64,000 nt of DNA from a virus. The notes under the pieces are model-generated. The model was not told the DNA's origin and ran no database searches. It was given only the letters and a program-made list of their open reading frames with translations. The translations under genes and the position numbers were made by a program. The stretch is from positions 49,910 to 113,909 of the IMG/VR virus record IMGVR_UViG_3300008448_000014. One strand, 5' to 3'. Positions 1-11,301 of this stretch are shown here, piece by piece. Each line of letters starts with the position of its first letter. Positions within the stretch are counted from its first letter, which is position 1.

Positions 1-189
1 ACCTAAGATTTCATATTGTTTCTTTTCCATTGTTATATCTCCAAGTAAAAACACTACATCTTTTTTAGATATAGTGTTATTCCAGTTCTTTACAATAAGC
101 TCATTCATTTCTTCTGCAGAGCTAAATCCTCTTCTGATAGCCATATTCTCATGATGAAAATGTGGATCACTAAATAAATATGTACTCAT
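1..189 (-). CDS. Calcineurin-like metallophosphoesterase (partial, runs off the left edge)
   Basis: Hand translation MSTYLFSDPHFHHENMAIRRGFSSAEEMNELIVKNWNNTISKKDVVFLLGD shows the DxH and GD metallophosphoesterase motifs; not in the ORF track. Confidence 0.8.
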   Translation of the reverse strand, partial: MSTYLFSDPHFHHENMAIRRGFSSAEEMNELIVKNWNNTISKKDVVFLLGDITMEKKQYEILG

Positions 190-192
190 ATA

Positions 193-570
193 TCAATCAT
201 TATGAAATTCAACCATATATCCTTTGGCTATTAGTATTCTAAGACATGTATCATCATCAAATAACTGTACAGCCACTTTATCTCCATCTTCATCAAGACA
301 TTCTACTATCTGATAACCAGCACCATCTGTAGTTTTACCTTCTTTAGCACCACTAATTTGATGTAATATTAATGTTTTACCACTAGAATAGTAAAACACA
401 ATATCTCTCACTCCTTTGGGATTAAATACAACTGTAACATCAGTTTCTTCCCATGGTTGCACTACATCATTTTTCTTTGATATAATAGAATTGTATTTCT
501 TAACAAATGTTTCTTGTGCAAACATTGATGCACTTAATAGCAATAAGCTACAAATTAATAATTTTTTCAT
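193..570 (-). CDS. Secreted/periplasmic hypothetical protein
   Basis: Start moved to MKKLLICSLLLLSASMFAQ, a Sec signal peptide with a Bacteroidota-type A|Q cleavage site; the longer start overlaps the upstream gene. Confidence 0.7.
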   Translation of the reverse strand: MKKLLICSLLLLSASMFAQETFVKKYNSIISKKNDVVQPWEETDVTVVFNPKGVRDIVFYYSSGKTLILHQISGAKEGKTTDGAGYQIVECLDEDGDKVAVQLFDDDTCLRILIAKGYMVEFHND

Positions 571-574
571 AATT

Positions 575-790
575 TTATTGTTTAAATGTTTCGTTGTAGT
601 ATTGTTCATCTTCTTTATACATAGCACCATTATCTCTAAAATCTTGCCGTCCATTATGTCTTGCTGATTTTATATTTTGCTTTTCCATTTCTTTGGCTTG
701 TTTTAAAATTTCTTTTTTAATGACATTACCTTTCATTTGATAATAATTATCTAATTCTTGAAATAACCATTCTACTACTGTTTGTTTCAT
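575..790 (-). CDS. Small phage hypothetical protein (MKQTxVEWL...AKEMEK...YYNETF type)
   Basis: ORF track; tightly packed with neighbours. Confidence 0.7.
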   Translation of the reverse strand: MKQTVVEWLFQELDNYYQMKGNVIKKEILKQAKEMEKQNIKSARHNGRQDFRDNGAMYKEDEQYYNETFKQ

Positions 791-793
791 ATC

Positions 794-1024
794 TTATTTG
801 TTTTTAAATTGTTTAAACCAATCTTTTGCAGTTATACAAGGTAATCTGTTTTGATTACACCTAATACAAAATTCTGCATACTCTTGCATATCTTCCTCAC
901 TATACATTCTTTCAGCTTGCCATTTAGCACCATCAATAACTAAATCCATTAATGCTTTATAATTATCATTGTCAAATGCTCTTGATACTTTTTCAGCAAA
1001 TTCTTCAAGTGTTTCTTTATTCAT
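794..1024 (-). CDS. Hypothetical protein with ETLEE...GAKWQ module
   Basis: ORF track; module shared with the C-terminus of 1041..2000. Confidence 0.7.
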   Translation of the reverse strand: MNKETLEEFAEKVSRAFDNDNYKALMDLVIDGAKWQAERMYSEEDMQEYAEFCIRCNQNRLPCITAKDWFKQFKNK

Positions 1025-1040
1025 GTTATTTCTTTTTAAA

Positions 1041-2000
1041 TTAAAATTTATTATTCAGCCAAGTATAACATCTAAGTTTATATTGCGTATCATTTTCATG
1101 CTCAAATCTTTTAGGTAAGTTACCTAGTTCATTTTGTTCTTGTTGCCATTTTGCGCCAGCTATCCAATTAGGTTTCCTTACTTTATTTTGATAATCTAAA
1201 GATTCATCTCCAGTATTAATAGGAAATAATCTTTCAGCCACTTCCTCAAGCGTTTCTTGTTTATTAACTTTTATTCTTTTTCCTAAATGAATTATAGAAT
1301 TTCCACAAATTTTACATAGACCTTTCATTACATCAAAATCAGGTTCTTTACAAGTACAATCAGGTAATAAAAAACAATCTTGTTTAGGTTCTTCTTTTGG
1401 AATGATTTGCCCCATTTCTAAACCACCAGCATAATCCTCATTAATAATTTGTTGAGTTGTTCTTGGAATGATGATTTTGTATTCTCCAAATGTTTTAAGT
1501 ATTTTTTCAGCTCCTGTAATACCTCTATTATTAAACTTTACCTCAACACTCTTACAACTTGGATTCTTCACAAACCATTCAAGGAAATCATCTGGTATGG
1601 ATTGTATACCTTGTTTGATTAAATCTTGGTCTGTTGTAAGAATTACCTTTTTATCTCCTTCTTGAAAATATAGAAACGCAACACCATCAATGGTTTTAAA
1701 ACCTAAAACACCTTGACTGATTTCTGCTTTAGTTAATCTACCACTTTTAAGTATAACACTATCTCCTTCTTTAATTTCTTCATTGTTGGTGATGTATATG
1801 TTATGAGTTTTAAATGAAGAAGTAATATCTCTAAAACTACCATTTAAGGTAGTGTATTGAATAACATCATCAATAGTAATTGTTTCATTATATCTCCACC
1901 AAGATATACATTCATTTGAAGTTCCTCTCCAAAGATGTCTTAACAGTAAATCTCCTTTAATTGGATTTTTATCTGTTGGCAATACGTGTATGTTTTTCAT
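1041..2000 (-). CDS. Modular hypothetical protein with an internal CxC...CxxC segment and C-terminal ETLEE...GAKWQ module
   Basis: 319-aa ORF. Confidence 0.75.
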   Translation of the reverse strand: MKNIHVLPTDKNPIKGDLLLRHLWRGTSNECISWWRYNETITIDDVIQYTTLNGSFRDITSSFKTHNIYITNNEEIKEGDSVILKSGRLTKAEISQGVLGFKTIDGVAFLYFQEGDKKVILTTDQDLIKQGIQSIPDDFLEWFVKNPSCKSVEVKFNNRGITGAEKILKTFGEYKIIIPRTTQQIINEDYAGGLEMGQIIPKEEPKQDCFLLPDCTCKEPDFDVMKGLCKICGNSIIHLGKRIKVNKQETLEEVAERLFPINTGDESLDYQNKVRKPNWIAGAKWQQEQNELGNLPKRFEHENDTQYKLRCYTWLNNKF

Positions 2001-2002
2001 AT

Positions 2003-2260
2003 CTATCTACATTGTCCTATCTCAGGAATTAAACTTGCATCTGTTGTGCTAAATGTTTTTTGTTTTTGAATATTAGTACATTCATTAATGGTAGTGTACA
2101 CAGTGTGATAAGTGATAGCTGGATTCTGTGGTGTGCCAAGTACATTGTAAGTTGTCTTAGCTACAACCTTATCACAATCACAATTCAATGCAGGAGTTTG
2201 CTCTTCTTCATTATTGCAAGACATTGCAACTAATGATAATAATAATAATACTTTTTTCAT
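2003..2260 (-). CDS. Lipoprotein
   Basis: MKKVLLLLSLVAMS-C lipoprotein signal followed by acidic NNEEEQ; four further Cys. Confidence 0.75.
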   Translation of the reverse strand: MKKVLLLLSLVAMSCNNEEEQTPALNCDCDKVVAKTTYNVLGTPQNPAITYHTVYTTINECTNIQKQKTFSTTDASLIPEIGQCR

Positions 2261-2436
2261 GGTTTTTTAAATTTAATTTCTAATGATTCCATTATTTCAT
2301 TAAAATCTTTTTGTTTTAATGTTTTAGGTTTGTTAATATATAATACATGTGTAGAATTTCCTTCTTCACTAATAAAAGATACAATACCTGTTTCTTTTTT
2401 TAATAGCACTCTTTTAGTTTCTTGTAATAAACTCAT
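2257..2436 (-). CDS. Small hypothetical protein (59 aa)
   Basis: Hand translation MSLLQETKRVLLKK...; ATGA overlaps with both neighbours. Confidence 0.5.
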   Translation of the reverse strand: MSLLQETKRVLLKKETGIVSFISEEGNSTHVLYINKPKTLKQKDFNEIMESLEIKFKKP

Positions 2437-2531
2437 AATTTATTTTTAAATGTATTTAATAATATTTTGTTAATAATTGGTACTATTAAAAAACATATTA
2501 TAATAGCTAAACTTAATCCTTGATTTTCCAT
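2433..2531 (-). CDS. Small membrane peptide (32 aa)
   Basis: MENQGLSLAIIICFLIVPIINKILL...; ATGA overlap with the next gene. Confidence 0.4.
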   Translation of the reverse strand: MENQGLSLAIIICFLIVPIINKILLNTFKNKL

Positions 2532-2551
2532 AATTTAAACTTTTTAAAAAG

Positions 2552-2573
2552 AAAAAGCCCTATTTCTAGGGCT
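2552..2573 (-). terminator. Rho-independent terminator
   Basis: AGCCCTA-GAAA-TAGGGCT followed by a U-run on the minus strand, just after the stop at 2584. Confidence 0.75.
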
Positions 2574-2583
2574 AATTCAAGAA

Positions 2584-2730
2584 TTAATAACCTAATTGTT
2601 CTAAAGATAACTTATCAGCTGTCACCTCGTATACTCCTTTTGTTATTTTACAATCAAACCAAATTTTAAATTCATTTGCTTTTTGTTTAAACTGATAAAA
2701 AGCTGTGGGTTGCATTTTAATTTTTTTCAT
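2584..2730 (-). CDS. Small hypothetical protein (48 aa)
   Basis: Start moved to MKKIKMQP because the ORF-track start lies inside a terminator hairpin. Confidence 0.55.
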   Translation of the reverse strand: MKKIKMQPTAFYQFKQKANEFKIWFDCKITKGVYEVTADKLSLEQLGY

Positions 2731-2761
2731 GTGTTCTATGTTTAATTTGTGATTAAGTGTT

Positions 2762-2796
2762 AAAAAATCCCTACACACTTGAGACATGTGTAGGGA
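2762..2796 (-). terminator. Rho-independent terminator (likely 3' end of the putative ncRNA)
   Basis: 10-bp stem TCCCTACACA/TGTGTAGGGA followed by 6 U on the minus strand. Confidence 0.8.
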
Positions 2797-3395
2797 AATG
2801 GTAAAATTTTACATTCAAAGAATGCAAGCCTCATATGTATGAGCACTTATCAGTTAGTTGTGTATAAGTTAATCAAACCAATGATTACTATTTTAGCACC
2901 TTCTTTCTTATATAAACTGCCTATTATGGTACCTAAATATAAGAGTAAGGTCACGTAGTTTATTGTAATAAGAAGTAAATGTTTCATTACATCCCAATAG
3001 AACTACTTGCTGAGAACTCATTACGTGAGTGTGGAGCCATTCATTATCCACCATAACTAGCACTTTCCTTTCTCAAGGGAACTCACGTTCTAGGATTACT
3101 CCTTGCTACTCTATAGGGTTCTTATGGTTTCCTATTTCACATCTCTCTGGCAATTCAGGATTAGTATCTTTATGTAAATAACAACTTCATAGATGCTACG
3201 TTAACTGTAGAGAAGTTTAATCATCATTTTTATTTACAAACCATCAATGTTTAGGGCTAACTTCTATCAGATTATCAGTTCTGACGCTTTACACAGCTTA
3301 GCTATTGTTTGAGAGTTTTTCATTACAACTCACAAGTGTTGACTTTTCTTCAGTCACCAATAGCACCCATTTAACCTTGGGTACACCAGGATTTA
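2762..3395 (-). ncRNA. Putative large structured noncoding RNA (~630 nt), family unassigned
   Basis: ORF-free and less AT-rich than the flanks; more than 10 nested helices; GNRA tetraloops and G-U pairs work on the minus strand; ends in a terminator. Confidence 0.6.
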
Positions 3396-3749
3396 TTATT
3401 CTTCTAACAAAGCAGCTTGTTTTCTTAAGAAATCTAGCTTAGCATTGTGTAATTCAAGAGCTTCTTCAGCATCAACTAATTTGTTTTGAGCTAATAATAA
3501 ATTAGAAATATAATAATTTCTATCAGTGATTAAATTACCATTGTTTAATCTAGCAAGTCTTAATGACTCTTTTGCTTCTTCTACAGCATCTTCTAAAGAT
3601 ATAGTATCTCCTGTTAATGATGCAATTTGTGTTTTGAAAGCTGAATCAGCTTGTCTTAAGATTTTTTGTGCTGTTGCTTCTGCATCATCTCCTTTAAGTA
3701 AACAAACAATTTCTGTTACAAATGATTTTACAATTTTTTTAGTTGTCAT
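3396..3749 (-). CDS. Coiled-coil hypothetical protein
   Basis: 117-aa helical, heptad-rich ORF directly upstream of the putative ncRNA. Confidence 0.75.
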   Translation of the reverse strand: MTTKKIVKSFVTEIVCLLKGDDAEATAQKILRQADSAFKTQIASLTGDTISLEDAVEEAKESLRLARLNNGNLITDRNYYISNLLLAQNKLVDAEEALELHNAKLDFLRKQAALLEE

Positions 3750-3754
3750 GATTT

Positions 3755-5044
3755 TTAAAATTTAAATTTGTTATTAATTGTTTTTGTGCTTAATTTAACA
3801 CTAACAGAATGCACATTTTCTATTAGTGGTTTTGTTTTTACTGTTTCATATGAATCATGTACATATACAGAGGATTCTTTTTTAATAATATCATATACAT
3901 CTATAGGATGTACATTATCATAAAATTGTTGAAGAGTTATTTCTGTATACCCAACTGGAACACTATTATTCCAATGTGTATATGTTCCATCATGTGCATC
4001 AGAAAGTAACCAACCTGTAAAAGCAATACTTTGTTCAAAAAAGTTAGGTTGTCTTTTTCTCCATTTATTTAATACTTCTTGATTACTTGATGTAATTTTT
4101 AAACACCATTTCTTTGGTAATATAGATAAAGTGGCTACAAACTGAGCATCATATGCTTCTTTAGAAGAAGGTTTGAAACAATCTTTTTCTTTTCTTACTT
4201 GTTGACCACCTTTACCATCTCTTTTATCAAATTGTAGCCTAAAATAACCATTATTAACATCAAAAGAATCAATTTTATATATTCTTCCTTTTTTAGTAAT
4301 ATTCCAACCATAAGGTACTTCAATACATTCTACATATTCAGGAATACTAATAGATGTATCTACAGAAACTTTATCAGAAACTAGTTCCCACTTTGATAAA
4401 TCTAGTGGATTTTGTATAATCATACCATTATTACCTTTAGGAGTTGTATTTAAAACATAAGTTTTTAATCTTTCTAATAAAATTTTAACTGTTTCACCTT
4501 TTTTCAGACCTGTATTATCAGGATTATCAAATAAAGCTTTAATAGTTCTTCCATTGTAACTTTCAGATGTTGTTTTACCAAGAAAATCTTTAGATAAAAC
4601 TACACTTGTATAATAAAAACTGTGATGATTTTTTCTAGCTACTGTCCATTCTTTTCTTGTTCTATTAAACCCAACAAAATACCATTCAGTATTGGCAGTT
4701 TTAGTAGCATACTTATAATAATTAGGATTAATATTTTCTTCTTTTGATTCTAAATAATCAAATACTTTTTTAGAATCAGTCTCAGAGCTACACTCTATTA
4801 ATAAATTTCTATCTATATTTTCCATACTAACTGTTTTTGTTACAAATTTAGATAATTCTTCCCACTTATATTCAGTTTTTGAAGAACTTTGACAAAACCA
4901 ATAAAATTTACTGTTCCAACCAACAAAAATAGCATATGTACTTATAATTTCATTAGATGTTCTATTTTCTTTTAAATATGTTATTAAATCATTTTGGTTT
5001 TTTCCATCAAATTTAAAACAACCTTGAATTGGAAACTCTTTCAT
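3755..5044 (-). CDS. Multi-module hypothetical protein
   Basis: 429-aa ORF made of several ~60-80 aa Trp/Tyr-rich modules. Confidence 0.75.
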   Translation of the reverse strand: MKEFPIQGCFKFDGKNQNDLITYLKENRTSNEIISTYAIFVGWNSKFYWFCQSSSKTEYKWEELSKFVTKTVSMENIDRNLLIECSSETDSKKVFDYLESKEENINPNYYKYATKTANTEWYFVGFNRTRKEWTVARKNHHSFYYTSVVLSKDFLGKTTSESYNGRTIKALFDNPDNTGLKKGETVKILLERLKTYVLNTTPKGNNGMIIQNPLDLSKWELVSDKVSVDTSISIPEYVECIEVPYGWNITKKGRIYKIDSFDVNNGYFRLQFDKRDGKGGQQVRKEKDCFKPSSKEAYDAQFVATLSILPKKWCLKITSSNQEVLNKWRKRQPNFFEQSIAFTGWLLSDAHDGTYTHWNNSVPVGYTEITLQQFYDNVHPIDVYDIIKKESSVYVHDSYETVKTKPLIENVHSVSVKLSTKTINNKFKF

Positions 5045-5205
5045 AACTCTTGTTTTACATATCTAGAAATTCTTTTATATGTCAAAGAGTTATAACTCTG
5101 TAACACAACCAATGCTTTACAACAAGCATATTGTAATGGATTAGTAGAAGCAACTACTTGTCCTACTACCACTTTTGCTGGAATTCTTGGTCTACCTTTC
5201 TTCAT
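5041..5205 (-). CDS. Small basic protein
   Basis: Likely start MKKGRPRIP (AT-hook-like GRPR); ATGA overlap with 3755..5044. Confidence 0.5.
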   Translation of the reverse strand: MKKGRPRIPAKVVVGQVVASTNPLQYACCKALVVLQSYNSLTYKRISRYVKQEL

Positions 5206-5362
5206 CTTTTTTCTTGTTAAGAGAAAATCCAAATATCACAGGAGCAACAATAGGTGCTAATATAAAACAAATAATATCATTCCATGACCAATCTTCTAAA
5301 TGGTCATACTCATTTAATAATATTCCAAATACTATTAAATAACAAACTATACAATATAACAT
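5192..5362 (-). CDS. Small membrane protein (56 aa, two hydrophobic segments)
   Basis: Hand translation MLYCIVCYLIVFGILL...IICFILAPIVAPVIFGFSL; A-rich leader. Confidence 0.5.
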   Translation of the reverse strand: MLYCIVCYLIVFGILLNEYDHLEDWSWNDIICFILAPIVAPVIFGFSLNKKKDEER

Positions 5363-5380
5363 AATTTTTAAATTTTTAAA

Positions 5381-5587
5381 TTAAACATCTTCTGCTTCAT
5401 CAGCAAACATCATATCCCAATCTTCATCAGTGTTACCACTGATTATAAATTCTCTTTCACTAGCATTAAGCTTAGTAAATACATCTTGAGCTAATTCACC
5501 TTGTTCCCAACGTGAAATCTGCTCTGGTGTAACATTTAAATCTTTACTTCTTGTTACACCAAATACAGAGGTTCTAGTTATTATCAT
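5381..5587 (-). CDS. Small phage hypothetical protein (Q.VF..L.A.EREF..SG...DW type)
   Basis: ORF track; motif recognised from small phage proteins. Confidence 0.7.
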   Translation of the reverse strand: MIITRTSVFGVTRSKDLNVTPEQISRWEQGELAQDVFTKLNASEREFIISGNTDEDWDMMFADEAEDV

Positions 5588-5814
5588 ACTCCTATTAATT
5601 TATTTAAATGTCCTTCTTCAATTAATTTTGATAACACTTTTTCATCTTGATTGTTTAAATCATTAAGTTGACTAACAAGTCTTATTCTATCATGAGTGAT
5701 ATTATCACCATATATAGTTTTAACTTTATTACCTAATTCTATTAATTCTGACCAATTACGTTCATCTATTGGATTGAAATTATTATCAACCCATCTTCCA
5801 TTAACAATTCTCAT
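5584..5814 (-). CDS. Hypothetical protein
   Basis: ORF track; ATGA coupling. Confidence 0.65.
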   Translation of the reverse strand: MRIVNGRWVDNNFNPIDERNWSELIELGNKVKTIYGDNITHDRIRLVSQLNDLNNQDEKVLSKLIEEGHLNKLIGV

Positions 5815-5962
5815 ATTTTTCTATTTTTTGTTTGTACAATAATATAATTTGTTCTTGTAATAATATTCTTTCTTGGTAACTACTAATAAGTCTATTATTA
5901 ACATCATTCAAATCTTTTAATATTTGATTTTGTTCTTCTAATGCTTTTGTATATTCTTCCAT
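5801..5962 (-). CDS. Small coiled-coil protein (53 aa)
   Basis: Hand translation MEEYTKALEEQNQILKDLND... Confidence 0.45.
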   Translation of the reverse strand: MEEYTKALEEQNQILKDLNDVNNRLISSYQERILLQEQIILLYKQKIEKYENC

Positions 5963-6191
5963 AATGTTATTTTAGCTTACAGATTGTAACCATTTTTGTT
6001 TATATAGTTATAATCTGTAAGCAGTTTTTGTTAATACTTGCAAATTAAAAAATTTTAAACTAGCTTTGAGCAAGCTTTGAGCTATAAAAGTATTGGAACA
6101 ATATAACACATATCTAATAATAGACATATACACAGAGCAATACTTAATTCTTTTCTTGTTCCTTTAAAGTTAGGAATTACAAATAATGTTA

Positions 6192-6419
6192 TCATAAGTC
6201 TATTAGTTTTGCTTCATCTCTTGATAACCATTTAATAGAATACCCATATTCTTTAAGATGATCAAAAGGTAAACCATCTCTTTCACTTTCTGTTTCCATA
6301 CCATATAGGAGAGAATCAATAAATTGTTCTTCATCATCATAATTAAGTGAATAATTAGGATATACTTCTGATATATTATCAGCAATAGATATTTCTACTA
6401 AAACTGTTAGTTTTTTCAT
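6192..6419 (-). CDS. Acidic hypothetical protein
   Basis: ORF track. Confidence 0.65.
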   Translation of the reverse strand: MKKLTVLVEISIADNISEVYPNYSLNYDDEEQFIDSLLYGMETESERDGLPFDHLKEYGYSIKWLSRDEAKLIDL

Positions 6420-6433
6420 ATAATGCTATATTA

Positions 6434-6637
6434 TTATGGGATTAAATCTTCCCAATTAATACTCTTTATTTTATGTTGCTCATTAGCTAAATAATCATCT
6501 TCATCTTTTAATTGTATAATAGCTGAATATAATTCATCAACATTAGCTTTTGACATTGGTTTATTAAACATAATACCAACCATATCCTCCATTCTTTGTA
6601 ATGTAATTGTTTCTTTTACTTTTGCCATGTGTTTCAA
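6434..6637 (-). CDS. Hypothetical protein
   Basis: ORF track. Confidence 0.6.
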   Translation of the reverse strand: MKHMAKVKETITLQRMEDMVGIMFNKPMSKANVDELYSAIIQLKDEDDYLANEQHKIKSINWEDLIP

Positions 6638-6657
6638 GTTTTAATTTATTACTATTT

Positions 6658-6894
6658 TTATTCATCTACAGAATTTAAATACACTGTATCTCCATTTGTA
6701 GTTAATTGTAATTTCCTAATACCATCTGCAGGTATATCTTTATCAAGTCCTTCCCATTCAAATTTAATATTTGATTTAAGGTTTTCATTAGTGTTGCTCA
6801 AGATATATTCATTAGTAATATAACCACCAACAGCCATACCAAAAAATAATCCACTAATCCATACCCAAATTAAGGAATAATCTATTTTTTTCAT
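6658..6894 (-). CDS. Membrane-anchored hypothetical protein
   Basis: N-terminal hydrophobic helix LIWVWISGLFFGMAVGGYI. Confidence 0.65.
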   Translation of the reverse strand: MKKIDYSLIWVWISGLFFGMAVGGYITNEYILSNTNENLKSNIKFEWEGLDKDIPADGIRKLQLTTNGDTVYLNSVDE

Positions 6895-6928
6895 ATAATT
6901 TTATTTGTTTGTTATTTAAAATTTTTTA

Positions 6929-7120
6929 TTAATAACAATAAAAATCACCAACTTTATAAATTAATGAATTAATATATATAATTGTATTATTTTCTAATGT
7001 TAAATAATGACCTGATTCTTTAGATTCAACTTTTGTAATTTTTAAACAATCTTGTGTGTCTTCTATTGTACAACTTGATAAAGTAAATGACAATATAAAT
7101 AATATTATTATTTTTTTCAT
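6929..7120 (-). CDS. Lipoprotein
   Basis: MKKIIILFILSFTLSS-C lipoprotein signal, then acidic TIEDTQD. Confidence 0.7.
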   Translation of the reverse strand: MKKIIILFILSFTLSSCTIEDTQDCLKITKVESKESGHYLTLENNTIIYINSLIYKVGDFYCY

Positions 7121-7173
7121 TGTTATTTTATTTAATATAATCAGTCAATCCAGCACTACCTGTAATTGACTGA

Positions 7174-7467
7174 CTAAAGTTTTGTTATTAAATTTAATGC
7201 TTTTTCATGTCCTTCAAGAGCATCTTTGTGTGATGTATATCTCTCTTGATATTGATCGTGTTCTCCTCCAAATATCATAGTTTCCCATAACACTGGTATT
7301 TCACTATTCCAACTATGGTTAAGACCTAGGAATACAGTAGATACAAAAACTGTATCAATATGATCTTTAGCTACAGTTTTTATTATACCACCATCTGACC
7401 ATTTTAAATAGTCATGAACATCAATTGCCTTAACAGGTTTATTGTTTTCATCTAATTTGTACCACAT
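7174..7467 (-). CDS. Phage hypothetical protein (VSTVFLG..H...ETMIFGG type)
   Basis: ORF track; recognisable small-phage-protein motif. Confidence 0.75.
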   Translation of the reverse strand: MWYKLDENNKPVKAIDVHDYLKWSDGGIIKTVAKDHIDTVFVSTVFLGLNHSWNSEIPVLWETMIFGGEHDQYQERYTSHKDALEGHEKALNLITKL

Positions 7468-7499
7468 AATTTTGTTATTTAGTCAGTTAATAATTTGTT

Positions 7500-7808
7500 T
7501 TAAAAATCATCTGCTACACCATTGTAAGCAAATGTACCATCCATAGAACATTCATCATACCAATCATTATAAGACATAACTGGTTTTCTAATGATTTTAT
7601 TCTTGTTATATATTCTTTTAAAAGAAGCAAAATCTTGTTGAGCTAACTCTGATATAATTAAATACCAATCAGCATCAACTCTCTTTGGTCTTTTAATACT
7701 ATGCACCTCAAGTGCATACAATGACAATAGTCTTCTCATATCATGAATAGAACATCCATGATTAATGAGAAAACTAAATACACCACTATCTATTTTAATC
7801 TTTTTCAT
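7500..7808 (-). CDS. Hypothetical protein
   Basis: ORF track. Confidence 0.6.
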   Translation of the reverse strand: MKKIKIDSGVFSFLINHGCSIHDMRRLLSLYALEVHSIKRPKRVDADWYLIISELAQQDFASFKRIYNKNKIIRKPVMSYNDWYDECSMDGTFAYNGVADDF

Positions 7809-7810
7809 AA

Positions 7811-8086
7811 CTATACCTCAGTTATATTAATTAAAGAACAAAACCATACTTCTTTATTACTATTATTCTGTATAAGAATATTATTAGAGTATTTATTAGC
7901 TCTCTCTATCAACTCTCCATCTAAATACATAGGAAGAGGAATATTAAACAATAATACAGTCCATTCATCTCTATTCCATCCTATAACAGGTATAAGAGGA
8001 GAAGAATGACTAATAGATCCATTACTAAGTTGTGTAGTCATATAAGACCCATCTATAATCCTAACTTGTGTTCCTTTTGTTATCAT
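7811..8086 (-). CDS. Hypothetical protein (SH3/KOW-like KGTQVRI start)
   Basis: ORF track. Confidence 0.55.
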   Translation of the reverse strand: MITKGTQVRIIDGSYMTTQLSNGSISHSSPLIPVIGWNRDEWTVLLFNIPLPMYLDGELIERANKYSNNILIQNNSNKEVWFCSLINITEV

Positions 8087-8573
8087 AATGCTATATATAT
8101 CTGATTAAAATTTGATTTTTGTTGTTTATTTTTGACCTGTTTGATTGCAGAATGGTCTACACTGCTCTTATTTTACCCACACAAACACATAATATTTTAG
8201 TCTATGTATATCTATTTTACATCATTCTATATGTATTCTCTTACAAAAACATACAATTTAGTATAATAAGTGAACTTTTACCCCTATGTAAATACAAACT
8301 TTTTTCACATTATTCTCTCAATATGTATATATATGCTAATTTGGTATACATACTCCTTATTATGTATATATATATATATTAAGGTATTTATTTATTTGTT
8401 TTAATAAACATATATAATAGTAATAACATTCCTAATATCATAAAGACTACATCATTCATTAGTAATAATGATATACATATAAATAGTATAAATAATAATT
8501 GTTTCATTTGCTTTCTTTGTTTTTTAAATTACCCACCCTGAACAAGTTCTTTTCCCACCACTATATATAATAA

Positions 8574-8595
8574 CAGGCTCAAATTAATGAGCCTG
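8574..8595 (-). terminator. Hairpin, possible terminator after the first early gene
   Basis: 8-bp stem CAGGCTCA/TGAGCCTG just downstream of the stop at 8612; weak U-tract. Confidence 0.5.
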
Positions 8596-8611
8596 CTATT
8601 GTATTACAATA

Positions 8612-9127
8612 TTACATTGCAATAAGGTCTTCCAAATTAATGGCAACACTTTCAAGTTTCTTGTTAAGCATTTCTTCTGTAATACTAACACGAGTTTTTG
8701 ACATATCTTGTCCACCTTGGTTAGAGATTGTGTAAATAACAAGAGGTTTCATTTCTCCTGTTTCTTCGTCTGCTACCATAATTGGCTTACCAAAGTTAGG
8801 AGATGTTTCATCTCTGTCTACTTGTGGTAATTCAAGAATTGGTAACAAAGCAAGATTAGCAAGTTTTTTTTGTAGTTCATTTTCTGATTTAGAAGAACGT
8901 AAATCAGCACTTAATGGGTCAGAACAATTAACGTAAACACGTTGTCCTTTTGCATTATAGATTGCAATAGTAACACGATTAAGTTTACCTGTCTTTTCAT
9001 TAAGCACTCCTTTGAAGTTCTTCTTGCTTGATAGTTCGTGGTAACCACCTATTCCTGCATACTCTGCAACTGTACCAATAGTTTTTAATGTGCTCTCTTG
9101 TTGAGCAACGTCTTTAAATTGTAACAT
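8612..9127 (-). CDS. First gene of the minus-strand arm; unknown function, probably highly expressed
   Basis: 171-aa ORF; uses CGT/TAC/AAC codons as the capsid gene does. Confidence 0.75.
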   Translation of the reverse strand: MLQFKDVAQQESTLKTIGTVAEYAGIGGYHELSSKKNFKGVLNEKTGKLNRVTIAIYNAKGQRVYVNCSDPLSADLRSSKSENELQKKLANLALLPILELPQVDRDETSPNFGKPIMVADEETGEMKPLVIYTISNQGGQDMSKTRVSITEEMLNKKLESVAINLEDLIAM

Positions 9128-10642: not shown

Positions 10643-10893
10643 AAAGTTATTATAATAGAAGCCTGATTGTACTAGAAAGAATAAAAAAGTTTATTCCTAA
10701 CATCACTTTAGGAAAACATTTTGCTACAGCCTTAGAAGACTGTAACATAGAAAATATTTCAGATAAAGATTTATTTATTAAATTAAATGACTATCTTAGC
10801 ACGCTAGAAAGTGATGTCCCTCATTGCCAAGATCTTGAACAGATTATAAAGGAAGGCCTTGATTTAAATCACATTTTAGATAGTGAAGAATAG
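10639..10893 (+). CDS. Hypothetical protein
   Basis: ORF track. Confidence 0.7.
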   Translation: MKSYYNRSLIVLERIKKFIPNITLGKHFATALEDCNIENISDKDLFIKLNDYLSTLESDVPHCQDLEQIIKEGLDLNHILDSEE

Positions 10894-10914
10894 AAATATA
10901 TAATAAACTACATA

Positions 10915-11301
10915 ATGGAAAACCAAGATTTAAGGTGGAATGAAATAACAAATTCATTTTATACATGGAATCAAATGACTTTTACAAAAGAAGATATAAC
11001 AATTCCTTATTTTTGTAATGGTGAAAGATTTGGAACATTTAGAAGAGCACATTTAAATGGTATGCAAGAATTTCTTTGTTCTGATGGTGAAGATGTTTAT
11101 CATTCACAAGAGGAAAGAAGAAGAGAAAGATTTAGAAAGCAGGAATTAGCATTTAAAAATAGACTTGCTGCAGACTCTGAAGAACAACTTAGATACAATG
11201 CTGTAGTAGATAGCATTGTTAATTATAAAGACCATAAGGAATATAAATATAAAACTAGTTTTAAATATAGAATGTTAAAGTTTTTTAAATTAGCTAAATA
11301 A
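10915..11301 (+). CDS. Hypothetical protein
   Basis: ORF track; TAATG coupling. Confidence 0.65.
   Translation: MENQDLRWNEITNSFYTWNQMTFTKEDITIPYFCNGERFGTFRRAHLNGMQEFLCSDGEDVYHSQEERRRERFRKQELAFKNRLAADSEEQLRYNAVVDSIVNYKDHKEYKYKTSFKYRMLKFFKLAK

Follow-up and report, generated by a model that had tools for sequence, protein, structure and literature searches.

A modular non-coding RNA locus in a relative of the crAss-like phages and the phage-restricted RNA family of its core

Introduction

What is made from a stretch of phage DNA in which no sizeable open reading frame (ORF) can be found, and what might its product do? The question is raised by positions 2762-3395, minus strand, of the window, the 64,000-nucleotide (nt) stretch analyzed here, which is taken from an IMG/VR phage genome of 113.9 kb (bases 49910-113909) that carries direct repeats at its ends. 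An initial annotation, made from the letters alone, had placed one large phage RNA there. The analysis confirms a structured, non-coding, minus-strand RNA locus, but a modular composite in place of the single homogeneous 630-nt RNA first envisaged. Judged from conserved sequence and pairing, the ~370-nt core of this composite is almost certainly a member of a structured-RNA family restricted to phages.

Results

A gene-free gap with a structured minus strand

The genes at positions 1-9127 are small and lie on the minus strand. Within this arm the 608-nt gap at 2788-3395 is indeed the longest, the next measuring 525 nt at 8087-8611. In the standard code, neither strand of 2788-3395 holds an ORF of more than 51 amino acids (aa), and this code keeps 28 of 28 long window ORFs intact. 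Recoding of TAG as glutamine opens a 137-codon frame on the plus strand; it gives the gap no plausible ORF. The G+C content is 35-36% in the gap against 25-29% in its flanks. The minus strand folds with a minimum free energy of -153.7 kcal/mol, compared with -135.3 +/- 3.3 for dinucleotide shuffles (z -5.5, 20 shuffles), so that the folding-energy comparison proposed at the outset comes out on the side of structure; the plus-strand z is -3.2 (20 shuffles).

The position first given for the RNA also holds: the stop codon (3396-3398) of a gene for a 117-aa protein lies just ahead of the first hairpin, which begins at 3387, and a strong terminator at 2796-2762 closes the region. A promoter scan gives 11 matches, compared with 10 in shuffles, that is, no excess. 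One copy of the RNA is present in this phage genome.

Rfam 15 returns zero matches on 2762-3395, ROOL and GOLLD included, both at the gathering threshold over the whole 64 kb and at E <= 10 over 2500-3700. ARAGORN and Rfam together detect no transfer RNA (tRNA) or transfer-messenger RNA (tmRNA) in the window or the rest of the phage genome. The initial annotation, which had seen no signatures of tRNA, tmRNA, RNase P or group I/II introns, agrees with these searches.

Members and distribution of the family

Relatives of the locus were reached in IMG/VR through an alignment of homologues of an upstream 429-aa protein; the same protein as a single-sequence query of IMG/VR had given no match. With nhmmer, collinear, island-like similarity to the gap appears in four lineages, including L002/L004, L016 and L019 (related loci are cited by L number). 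A 19-mer covering junction J4/6 and the start of helix H6, both described below, has exact matches in 103 IMG/VR contigs of 4-270 kb, and a second core probe in 91, of which 44 are new, giving 147 for the two probes. J4/6 is near-invariant also in the members found through the second probe. In all, the element is present in 152 fetched loci, 135 of them distinct. Across 185,579 prokaryote species genomes, the 19-mer matches only three contigs, all of them from metagenome-assembled genomes.

In the family core, which measures 270-490 nt, the conserved islands always follow one another as the H1 loop, AUUUACAUAAAGAUACUA, GGAGUAAUCC (or the short-form equivalent), CCUUGAGAAAGG, AAUGAGUUCUCAGCAAGUAG, ACUACGUGACCCUAC and GGGUGCUAA. 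Window 2891-3258 (minus strand) holds every island, with one or two substitutions that are compensated within helices, and the window scores 357 bits with the profile. Among cultured phages, a 1.2-kb blastn query at the default E-value finds no match, and a shorter query at E <= 10 recovers Cellulophaga phage phi14:2, the only cultured member found. Its element lies at KC821624 2915-3359 and meets the family profile at E = 3.9e-35 with all islands in order.

When 20 relatives are compared with Rfam at E <= 0.1, only neighboring tRNA and tmRNA genes are matched, and nothing on the element itself. The family is unlisted in Rfam 15 and, as far as the literature searched shows, undescribed beyond a remark on abundance in phi14:2. 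Fragments of it may be among the 8,495 unnamed IMG/VR candidates of 29-151 nt in Fremin et al. 2023 (PMC10690425).

Two variations on the core were observed. Two copies, either both complete or one partial and one complete, stand head to tail at L063:3864-4679, L132:759-1427, L138:988-1668 and L022:2318-2990. A divergent, smaller subgroup (L140, L172, L179, L159 and L162; upstream of the ACTACGTGACCCTACTC match) is without H1 and H2, has the junction UUGGGAGUUCUCAGCAAGUAG in place of CAAAUGAGUUCUCAGCAAGUAG, and begins directly after a protein gene.

Seven helices and a pseudoknot

A MAFFT alignment of 45 full-length members resolves seven conserved islands, between which lie five hairpins of free length and sequence. 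A seven-helix model was derived from the short members, with controls in which the 3' partners were slid by 1-3 columns. Over the 45 sequences the model pairs 94.1% of cells, against 38-53% in the slid controls. Covariation among homologues, named in the initial annotation as the check to make, is clear: compensatory changes fall at 27 of 46 pairs, in 135 cells compared with 28-43 when slid, and the observed pairing and covariation values are never attained in 500 column shuffles. A profile alignment of 102 distinct sequences yields the same pairs with H4 lengthened to seven, and four elements of the model (H2, the H3 apex, H4 and outer H7) also emerge de novo from RNAalifold. The window sequence is able to form every helix from H1 to H7.

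The core spans 2891-3258 on the minus strand, to which all features that follow also belong. Its parts are seven helices (H1-H7), five variable hairpins (V1-V5) and a 3' tail, UGCUAA, that does not vary. The H1 hairpin (3239-3258) is formed by AGCC/GGUU here and by AGGU/ACCU in most members, carries a near-invariant 12-nt loop (UAAACAUUGA..), and has its third pair swapped from G-C to C-G in four sequences. H2 (3231-3238 with 3173-3180) encloses V1; both sides change at five of its seven pairs, and pairing holds in 94.9% of cells. Junction J2/3 (3165-3172), reading UAAAGAUA, leads into H3, in which CUA 3162-3164 pairs with UAG 3090-3092. The window has the long form of H3, a 69-nt, multi-hairpin insert terminating in a GGA-GUAA-UCC hairpin (3093-3102), in place of which short-form members have CUAUCA-GUAA-UGGUAG. 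All three outer and all three apical pairs of H3 covary.

H4 (3081-3088 with 3023-3030) encloses H5 (3065-3080) and the variable hairpin V3 (3031-3052). It is the clearest helix of the fold, with 98.9% of cells paired and five of six pairs compensatory, as in GUGAGU/ACUCAC of the window, GUGUUG/CAACAC of most members and AUGCAG/CUGCAU of L096. The outer stem of H5 covaries as well. H6 (3001-3006 with 2955-2960) encloses V4, and the insert between its arms varies in length; pairing is seen in 92.4% of cells, with weak covariation (2/7 pairs). Beyond J6/7 (GUGA, 2951-2954), H7 (2938-2950 with 2899-2912) encloses V5. Four of the six pairs in its inner helix are compensatory, and its outer part, CCCU/AGGG, is near-invariant, the CCUU/AAGG of the window being a compensatory change. 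Support for H6 and outer H7 comes mainly from conservation and from their position around variable inserts. The 3' tail (2891-2898) reads UGCUAAAA. The three long pairings recognized at first reading are H2, H4 and H6, and family covariation supports each of them.

The H5 loop, UUGAGAA (7 nt, 3070-3076), forms the first strand of a pseudoknot and is complementary to UUCUCAG (3010-3016), the second strand, located in junction J4/6 (3007-3022, AAUGAGUUCUCAGCAA), where the family is most strongly conserved. Both strands are near-invariant. Compensatory events are found as UGAAAA/UUUUCA (L153), UGAGCA/UGCUCA (L173) and CGAGA/UCUCG (L148), together with one uncompensated A-C mismatch. By these paired changes, a 6-7-bp pseudoknot is shown to link the H5 loop to J4/6. 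Two details of the initial annotation are revised. One of its two GNRA-closed hairpins, GGA-GUAA-UCC, is retained, but CCUU-GAGA-AAGG is better read as the 7-nt pseudoknot loop UUGAGAA. The switch it proposed, in which 3023-3030 would find an alternative partner near 3016, is dropped: it needs helix sequence absent from most members, and the real long-range contact is that between the H5 loop and J4/6. A pairing of AGCA in J4/6 with UGCU in the tail was also considered and rejected, as its mismatches are uncompensated. RNAalifold offers one alternative, UACU (J2/3-H3) with AGUA (start of H6), which is invariant and competes with H3 and H6.

At one H3 pair U-G occurs in 23 of 45 sequences, and U-G and G-U pairs are frequent throughout. 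Because such pairs would be A-C mismatches on the other strand, the RNA is read from the minus strand, as initially assigned. The same observations bear on whether there is a functional RNA at all. The conserved signal could instead lie in the DNA, as an origin, a packaging site or a promoter array, or in a hidden coding region, for which the 137-codon frame under TAG recoding might be cited. This is scarcely tenable: besides the intact ORFs of the standard code, compensatory changes keep pairing and not codons, insert lengths are arbitrary, the G-U pairs are strand-specific, and the phi14:2 homologue is probably a transcript already reported as abundant.

Modules around the core

Along the transcript, the order would be module A, module B as an optional adaptor, the core, a lineage-specific trailer and a stop at the terminator, with transcription probably occurring together with, or just after, the small upstream genes. 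Module A (3308-3387) is ~80 nt long and consists of three hairpins, A1 (3360-3387), A2 (3338-3357) and A3 (3308-3336). In 13 homologues, 97.2% of its cells are paired, where slid controls give 32-54%, and compensatory changes are found at five pairs. It is joined directly to the 5' side of the core in six phages (L042, L050, L187, L114, L123 and L188). In three others (L034, L190 and L196) it is free-standing with a terminator of its own, which makes it a separable small RNA. Module B (3258-3305), ~50 nt and immediately 5' of the core, probably adopts a small three-way junction as its putative fold. It occurs in eight phages, is found at the same position in L083, L058, L034, L135, L055, L098 and L094, and is missing from most family members.

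Between the core and the terminator lies a 94-nt trailer (2797-2890) that folds into two or three local hairpins. Queried with nhmmer, the 3' part matches only the terminator, in L007 and L075, and the trailer is not conserved outside the lineage. The intrinsic terminator (2762-2796) has an 11-bp stem with five G-C pairs, a 7-nt loop and the U run UUUUUU, the hairpin covering 2796-2768; it recurs in the relative L007, where it closes the tmRNA-like gene. The smaller hairpins first annotated fall in different parts of the locus, those near 3365, 3340 and 3310 in module A, that near 3267 in module B and the one near 2830 in the non-conserved trailer.

At the terminator, the mechanical start (2787) of the minus-strand ORF 2584-2787 falls within the stem; the ATG at 2729-2731 is the likelier start and gives a ~48-aa protein.

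Comparison with known RNAs

The initial annotation set the RNA in the size class of ROOL (RF03087) and GOLLD (RF01998). That fits the whole transcript, but not the core of 270-490 nt, since the two known RNAs measure ~580-800 nt; the helix layout differs too. Like the present family, ROOL and GOLLD are large structured phage RNAs, abundant and often beside tRNA genes. Their covariance models give no match at the gathering threshold over the 64 kb, at E <= 10 over 2500-3700, or at E <= 0.1 over 20 relatives. The family resembles ROOL and GOLLD in niche and not in structure.

An RNA-only architectural particle of the ROOL/GOLLD kind, in which the core would multimerize into a cage or ring with a structural or sequestering role, is accordingly suggested by the shared niche (phage-borne, near tRNA genes, ornate and abundant), and contacts between molecules could be made by conserved hairpin loops, such as those of H1 and H3 (GUAA). 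It is nevertheless quite unlikely, given the failure of both models to match in sequence or structure, a core of about half the ROOL/GOLLD size, and the intramolecular pairing of the one conserved loop that can be tested.

tmRNA (RF00023) is a frequent immediate downstream neighbor of the core on the same strand, and pseudoknots occur in both; the two are not homologous, and the core has neither a tRNA-like domain nor a tag reading frame. Group I introns and RNase P RNA resemble the core in having a central pseudoknot, junction strands that are conserved and peripheral helices that vary, and J2/3 (CAUAAAGAUAC) is similar to the 'S' element of group I J8/7-P7. In contrast to both, the core has a helix order unlike P3-P9 and no P4-type consensus. 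The group I model RF00028 and all RNase P models (bacterial A and B, archaeal and type T) give no Rfam match on the window region or on 20 relatives. Unlike a group I intron, the element interrupts no host gene and sits between complete protein, tRNA or tmRNA genes. The strands of the RNase P P4 pseudoknot read AAAGUCC and ACAGAA, motifs that are absent from the family consensus. Because these model matches were tested and failed, the core is not a ROOL, GOLLD, group I intron, RNase P or tmRNA.

Expression

For phi14:2, Drobysheva et al. (bioRxiv 10.1101/2020.03.07.982082; later in Nature) report two long intergenic regions that are transcribed rightward, above most protein genes, from early in infection and persisting late; they are labeled long non-coding RNAs of undetermined function, the one that would correspond to the family member being given as the g004-g005 intergenic junction. 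Two large ORF-free stretches lie at the left end of phi14:2, at 2905-3589 with the family member and at ~4102-4601 with a tmRNA-like gene. From gap position and size, these are probably the published regions. The phi14:2 RNA matches that of the window in family, in its long-form H3 and in its location, on the gene strand among the small early genes of a crAss-like phage. In contrast to the window RNA, it is without modules A and B and has the tmRNA-like gene (an ARAGORN call, below the Rfam threshold) ~0.7 kb downstream. The paper gives its abundance only, without structure, family or function. In GenBank the RNA is overlain by small minus-strand ORFs: gp007-gp009, three frames of 34-39 codons at 3106-3431 of phi14:2 (L139, KC821624), cover and pass its 3' part, and are probably spurious calls.

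Among environmental data, a 238-nt contig with exactly the sequence of window 3011-3248 is present in one freshwater RNA-seq library, and relatives occur in several river and lake metatranscriptomes. The flanking genes are not covered by metatranscriptome contigs, an absence that carries no weight.

RNA-gene neighborhood and cassette behavior

Of the 123 distinct elements whose flanking sequence is long enough, 28 are followed on the same strand by a tmRNA-like gene within 1 kb, usually at a distance of 1-90 nt, and tRNA genes lie within 1.5 kb of 30 of 138 elements. At some loci the core is directly bordered on both sides by complete tRNA or tmRNA genes, which indicates an independent unit that could be released by the 5' and 3' processing of its neighbors. 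A close relative of the window phage, L007, has a tmRNA-like gene and a tRNA at a comparable ORF-free position. The tmRNA-like genes at L139:3562-4099 (KC821624 ~4079-4616) and L007:5075-5429 score below the Rfam gathering threshold and are recognized through ARAGORN, through their homology to phage tmRNAs that Rfam accepts, or through both, which implies that the phage tmRNAs of that group are under-called.

These arrays are one reason to consider a ribozyme, acting in trans or in cis and, for example, processing or modifying the RNAs encoded around it: the core often stands within RNA gene arrays in need of processing, and junctions and a pseudoknot that stay near-invariant across unrelated phages while five peripheral hairpins vary freely are typical of catalytic or ligand-binding cores. 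Several results make this unlikely. The ribozyme models of Rfam give no match, whether at E up to 10 over 1.2 kb or at E up to 0.1 over 20 relatives. A scan across the junction of natural tandem copies (L132), which serves as a circular-permutation test, yields nothing, and no conserved cleavage-site signature is recognized. The window phage, moreover, has no tRNA or tmRNA to process.

The L004 and L003 genomes, 99.3-99.8% identical, differ by a clean 933-nt indel (L004:10144-11076 vs L003:10126-10143) with a AAAAAAAC repeat at its flanks. The L004 cassette contains the core RNA, another conserved RNA-like module and a tRNA-like gene, a pattern that suggests that the core RNA behaves as accessory, exchangeable cargo. 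The tRNA-like gene (L004 ~10856-11040, equivalent to L002 ~5792-5976) is normal at both ends, with GUCAGGUGGCGGAA on the 5' side of the acceptor and GGUUCGAAUCCUGUCCUGAC for the T-arm and acceptor 3' end, and holds ~100 extra nt inside, including an apparent insert in the D-loop region; it is called neither by ARAGORN nor by Rfam at the gathering threshold. The further ORF-free conserved module, ~210-250 nt long and ending CCACUAGAAUUUGG.CAAGUGAUUUUU, is found at L004:10610-10855, L016:5056-5267, L008:5224-5433, L048:10713-10886 and L022:2492-2593. In several phages it adjoins the core, upstream in some and downstream in others, and it is probably another small RNA gene.

Cassette-like presence and absence between near-identical phages, tandem duplicates in some phages, co-located tRNA genes and early, sustained expression are all consistent with an anti-defense decoy, an abundant early RNA that would soak up or mimic the substrate of a host RNA-targeting immune nuclease, such as one that attacks tRNAs. 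Decoys usually resemble their target, however, and no tRNA-like or CRISPR-repeat-like element is detected in the core. Extreme conservation across very different phages also points to a universal target rather than to a variable defense system, and the decoy is judged improbable.

Phage identity and protein neighbors

The terminase, portal and major head proteins of the window phage match phage families. Its closest cultured terminases are those of Leptolyngbya phage Lbo-JY46 (39.6% identity), Cellulophaga phages of the phi4:1 type (31.7%) and crAss-like phages (~29%); it is a relative of the crAss-like phages.

The initial annotation also raised a ribonucleoprotein formed with the upstream 117-aa coiled-coil protein. 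The gene directly precedes the RNA in four lineages (the window, L135, L016 and L002), an adjacency that is explicable by conserved gene order. Homologues of the protein (54-77% identity) are confined to crAss-like relatives. Several of these, L007, L006, L021, L008/L009 and L003, have the gene without an adjacent RNA, and in L017/L078 the RNA is ~8 kb off. The fetched flanks of most of the 135 distinct RNA loci, from more than 100 phages, contain no such gene. Co-occurrence lends this partnership no support, and it is very improbable.

A second candidate is the family of a 319-aa protein (window 1041-2000, minus strand; phi14:2 gp006; phrog_15656), encoded within a few kb, always on the same strand, at 40 of 135 loci. 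It is also present at 13 of 30 loci without the RNA element, and it cannot be claimed as an RNA partner. The protein has a β-rich N-terminal domain and a C-terminal long-helix domain. Its AlphaFold model has a predicted local distance difference test (pLDDT) score of 64.5; it belongs to no Pfam family and has no Foldseek match in the PDB at E <= 0.001. The other recurrent neighbors, SPFH/Band-7, vWA, MoxR, DNA polymerase exonuclease, HNH and GIY-YIG endonucleases, provide no RNA-related lead.

Discussion

Taken together, the locus is best explained as a modular non-coding RNA whose core belongs to a phage RNA family and would act in trans on translation or RNA processing, an explanation given, as a whole, a probability of roughly 0.55. 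In the core, the seven helices hold the near-invariant junction strands together, the pseudoknot joins the H5 loop to J4/6, and the five peripheral hairpins are free to vary. Such a pattern of near-invariant junctions and free peripheral hairpins is typical of RNAs that use a tertiary core to bind or act on a partner that does not evolve together with the phage. The RNA would act as a folded molecule, its invariant, knotted core serving to bind, or act upon, some conserved part of the machinery for translation or RNA processing; within tRNA/tmRNA arrays, the enzymes that process the neighbors may cut the core RNA free. The recurrent embedding among tRNA and tmRNA genes suggests translation or RNA processing as the functional neighborhood. 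This mechanism, in which a stable RNA acting in trans would be directed at a conserved component of the host machinery for either process, is put forward tentatively and is less likely than not.

Several points weigh against this explanation. About three quarters of the members are without a nearby tmRNA, and the window phage has neither tRNA nor tmRNA genes, so that any link to translation cannot rest on phage-encoded partners. The presence and absence of the cassette in near-identical phages implies that the RNA is dispensable, at least in some settings. Antisense matches of the conserved strands to Escherichia coli 16S, 23S and 5S ribosomal RNA and tRNA-Glu are at most 9 nt long and within the range of shuffles. 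On expression, assembled contigs from RNA libraries give no information on the ends, strand or level of a transcript and may reflect DNA carry-over, and the published gene numbers g004-g005 were matched to GenBank coordinates by inference from gap position and size.

To our knowledge, large conserved structured RNAs whose job is undetermined are rare, and each one solved, among them RNase P, tmRNA, 6S RNA and the ωRNAs that guide IscB/TnpB, has revealed new biology. The present family bears the marks of a functional core in its near-invariant junctions, compensated pseudoknot and free peripheral hairpins. As one member resides in a tractable phage-host pair, phi14:2 and Cellulophaga baltica, its function is directly testable. 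The modular make-up and the clean presence or absence of the cassette suggest a role of structured RNA genes as mobile accessory cargo. A bolder and more doubtful possibility is that the core is a new functional RNA machine, a ribozyme or a specific binder of a universal translation component such as the ribosome, tRNA or tmRNA-SmpB, that many unrelated phages would make early in infection. If that were true, 'RNA islands' would constitute an unrecognized mobile layer of phage takeover functions, and phages would shuffle the core with small RNA modules (A, B and at least one more) as proteins shuffle domains.

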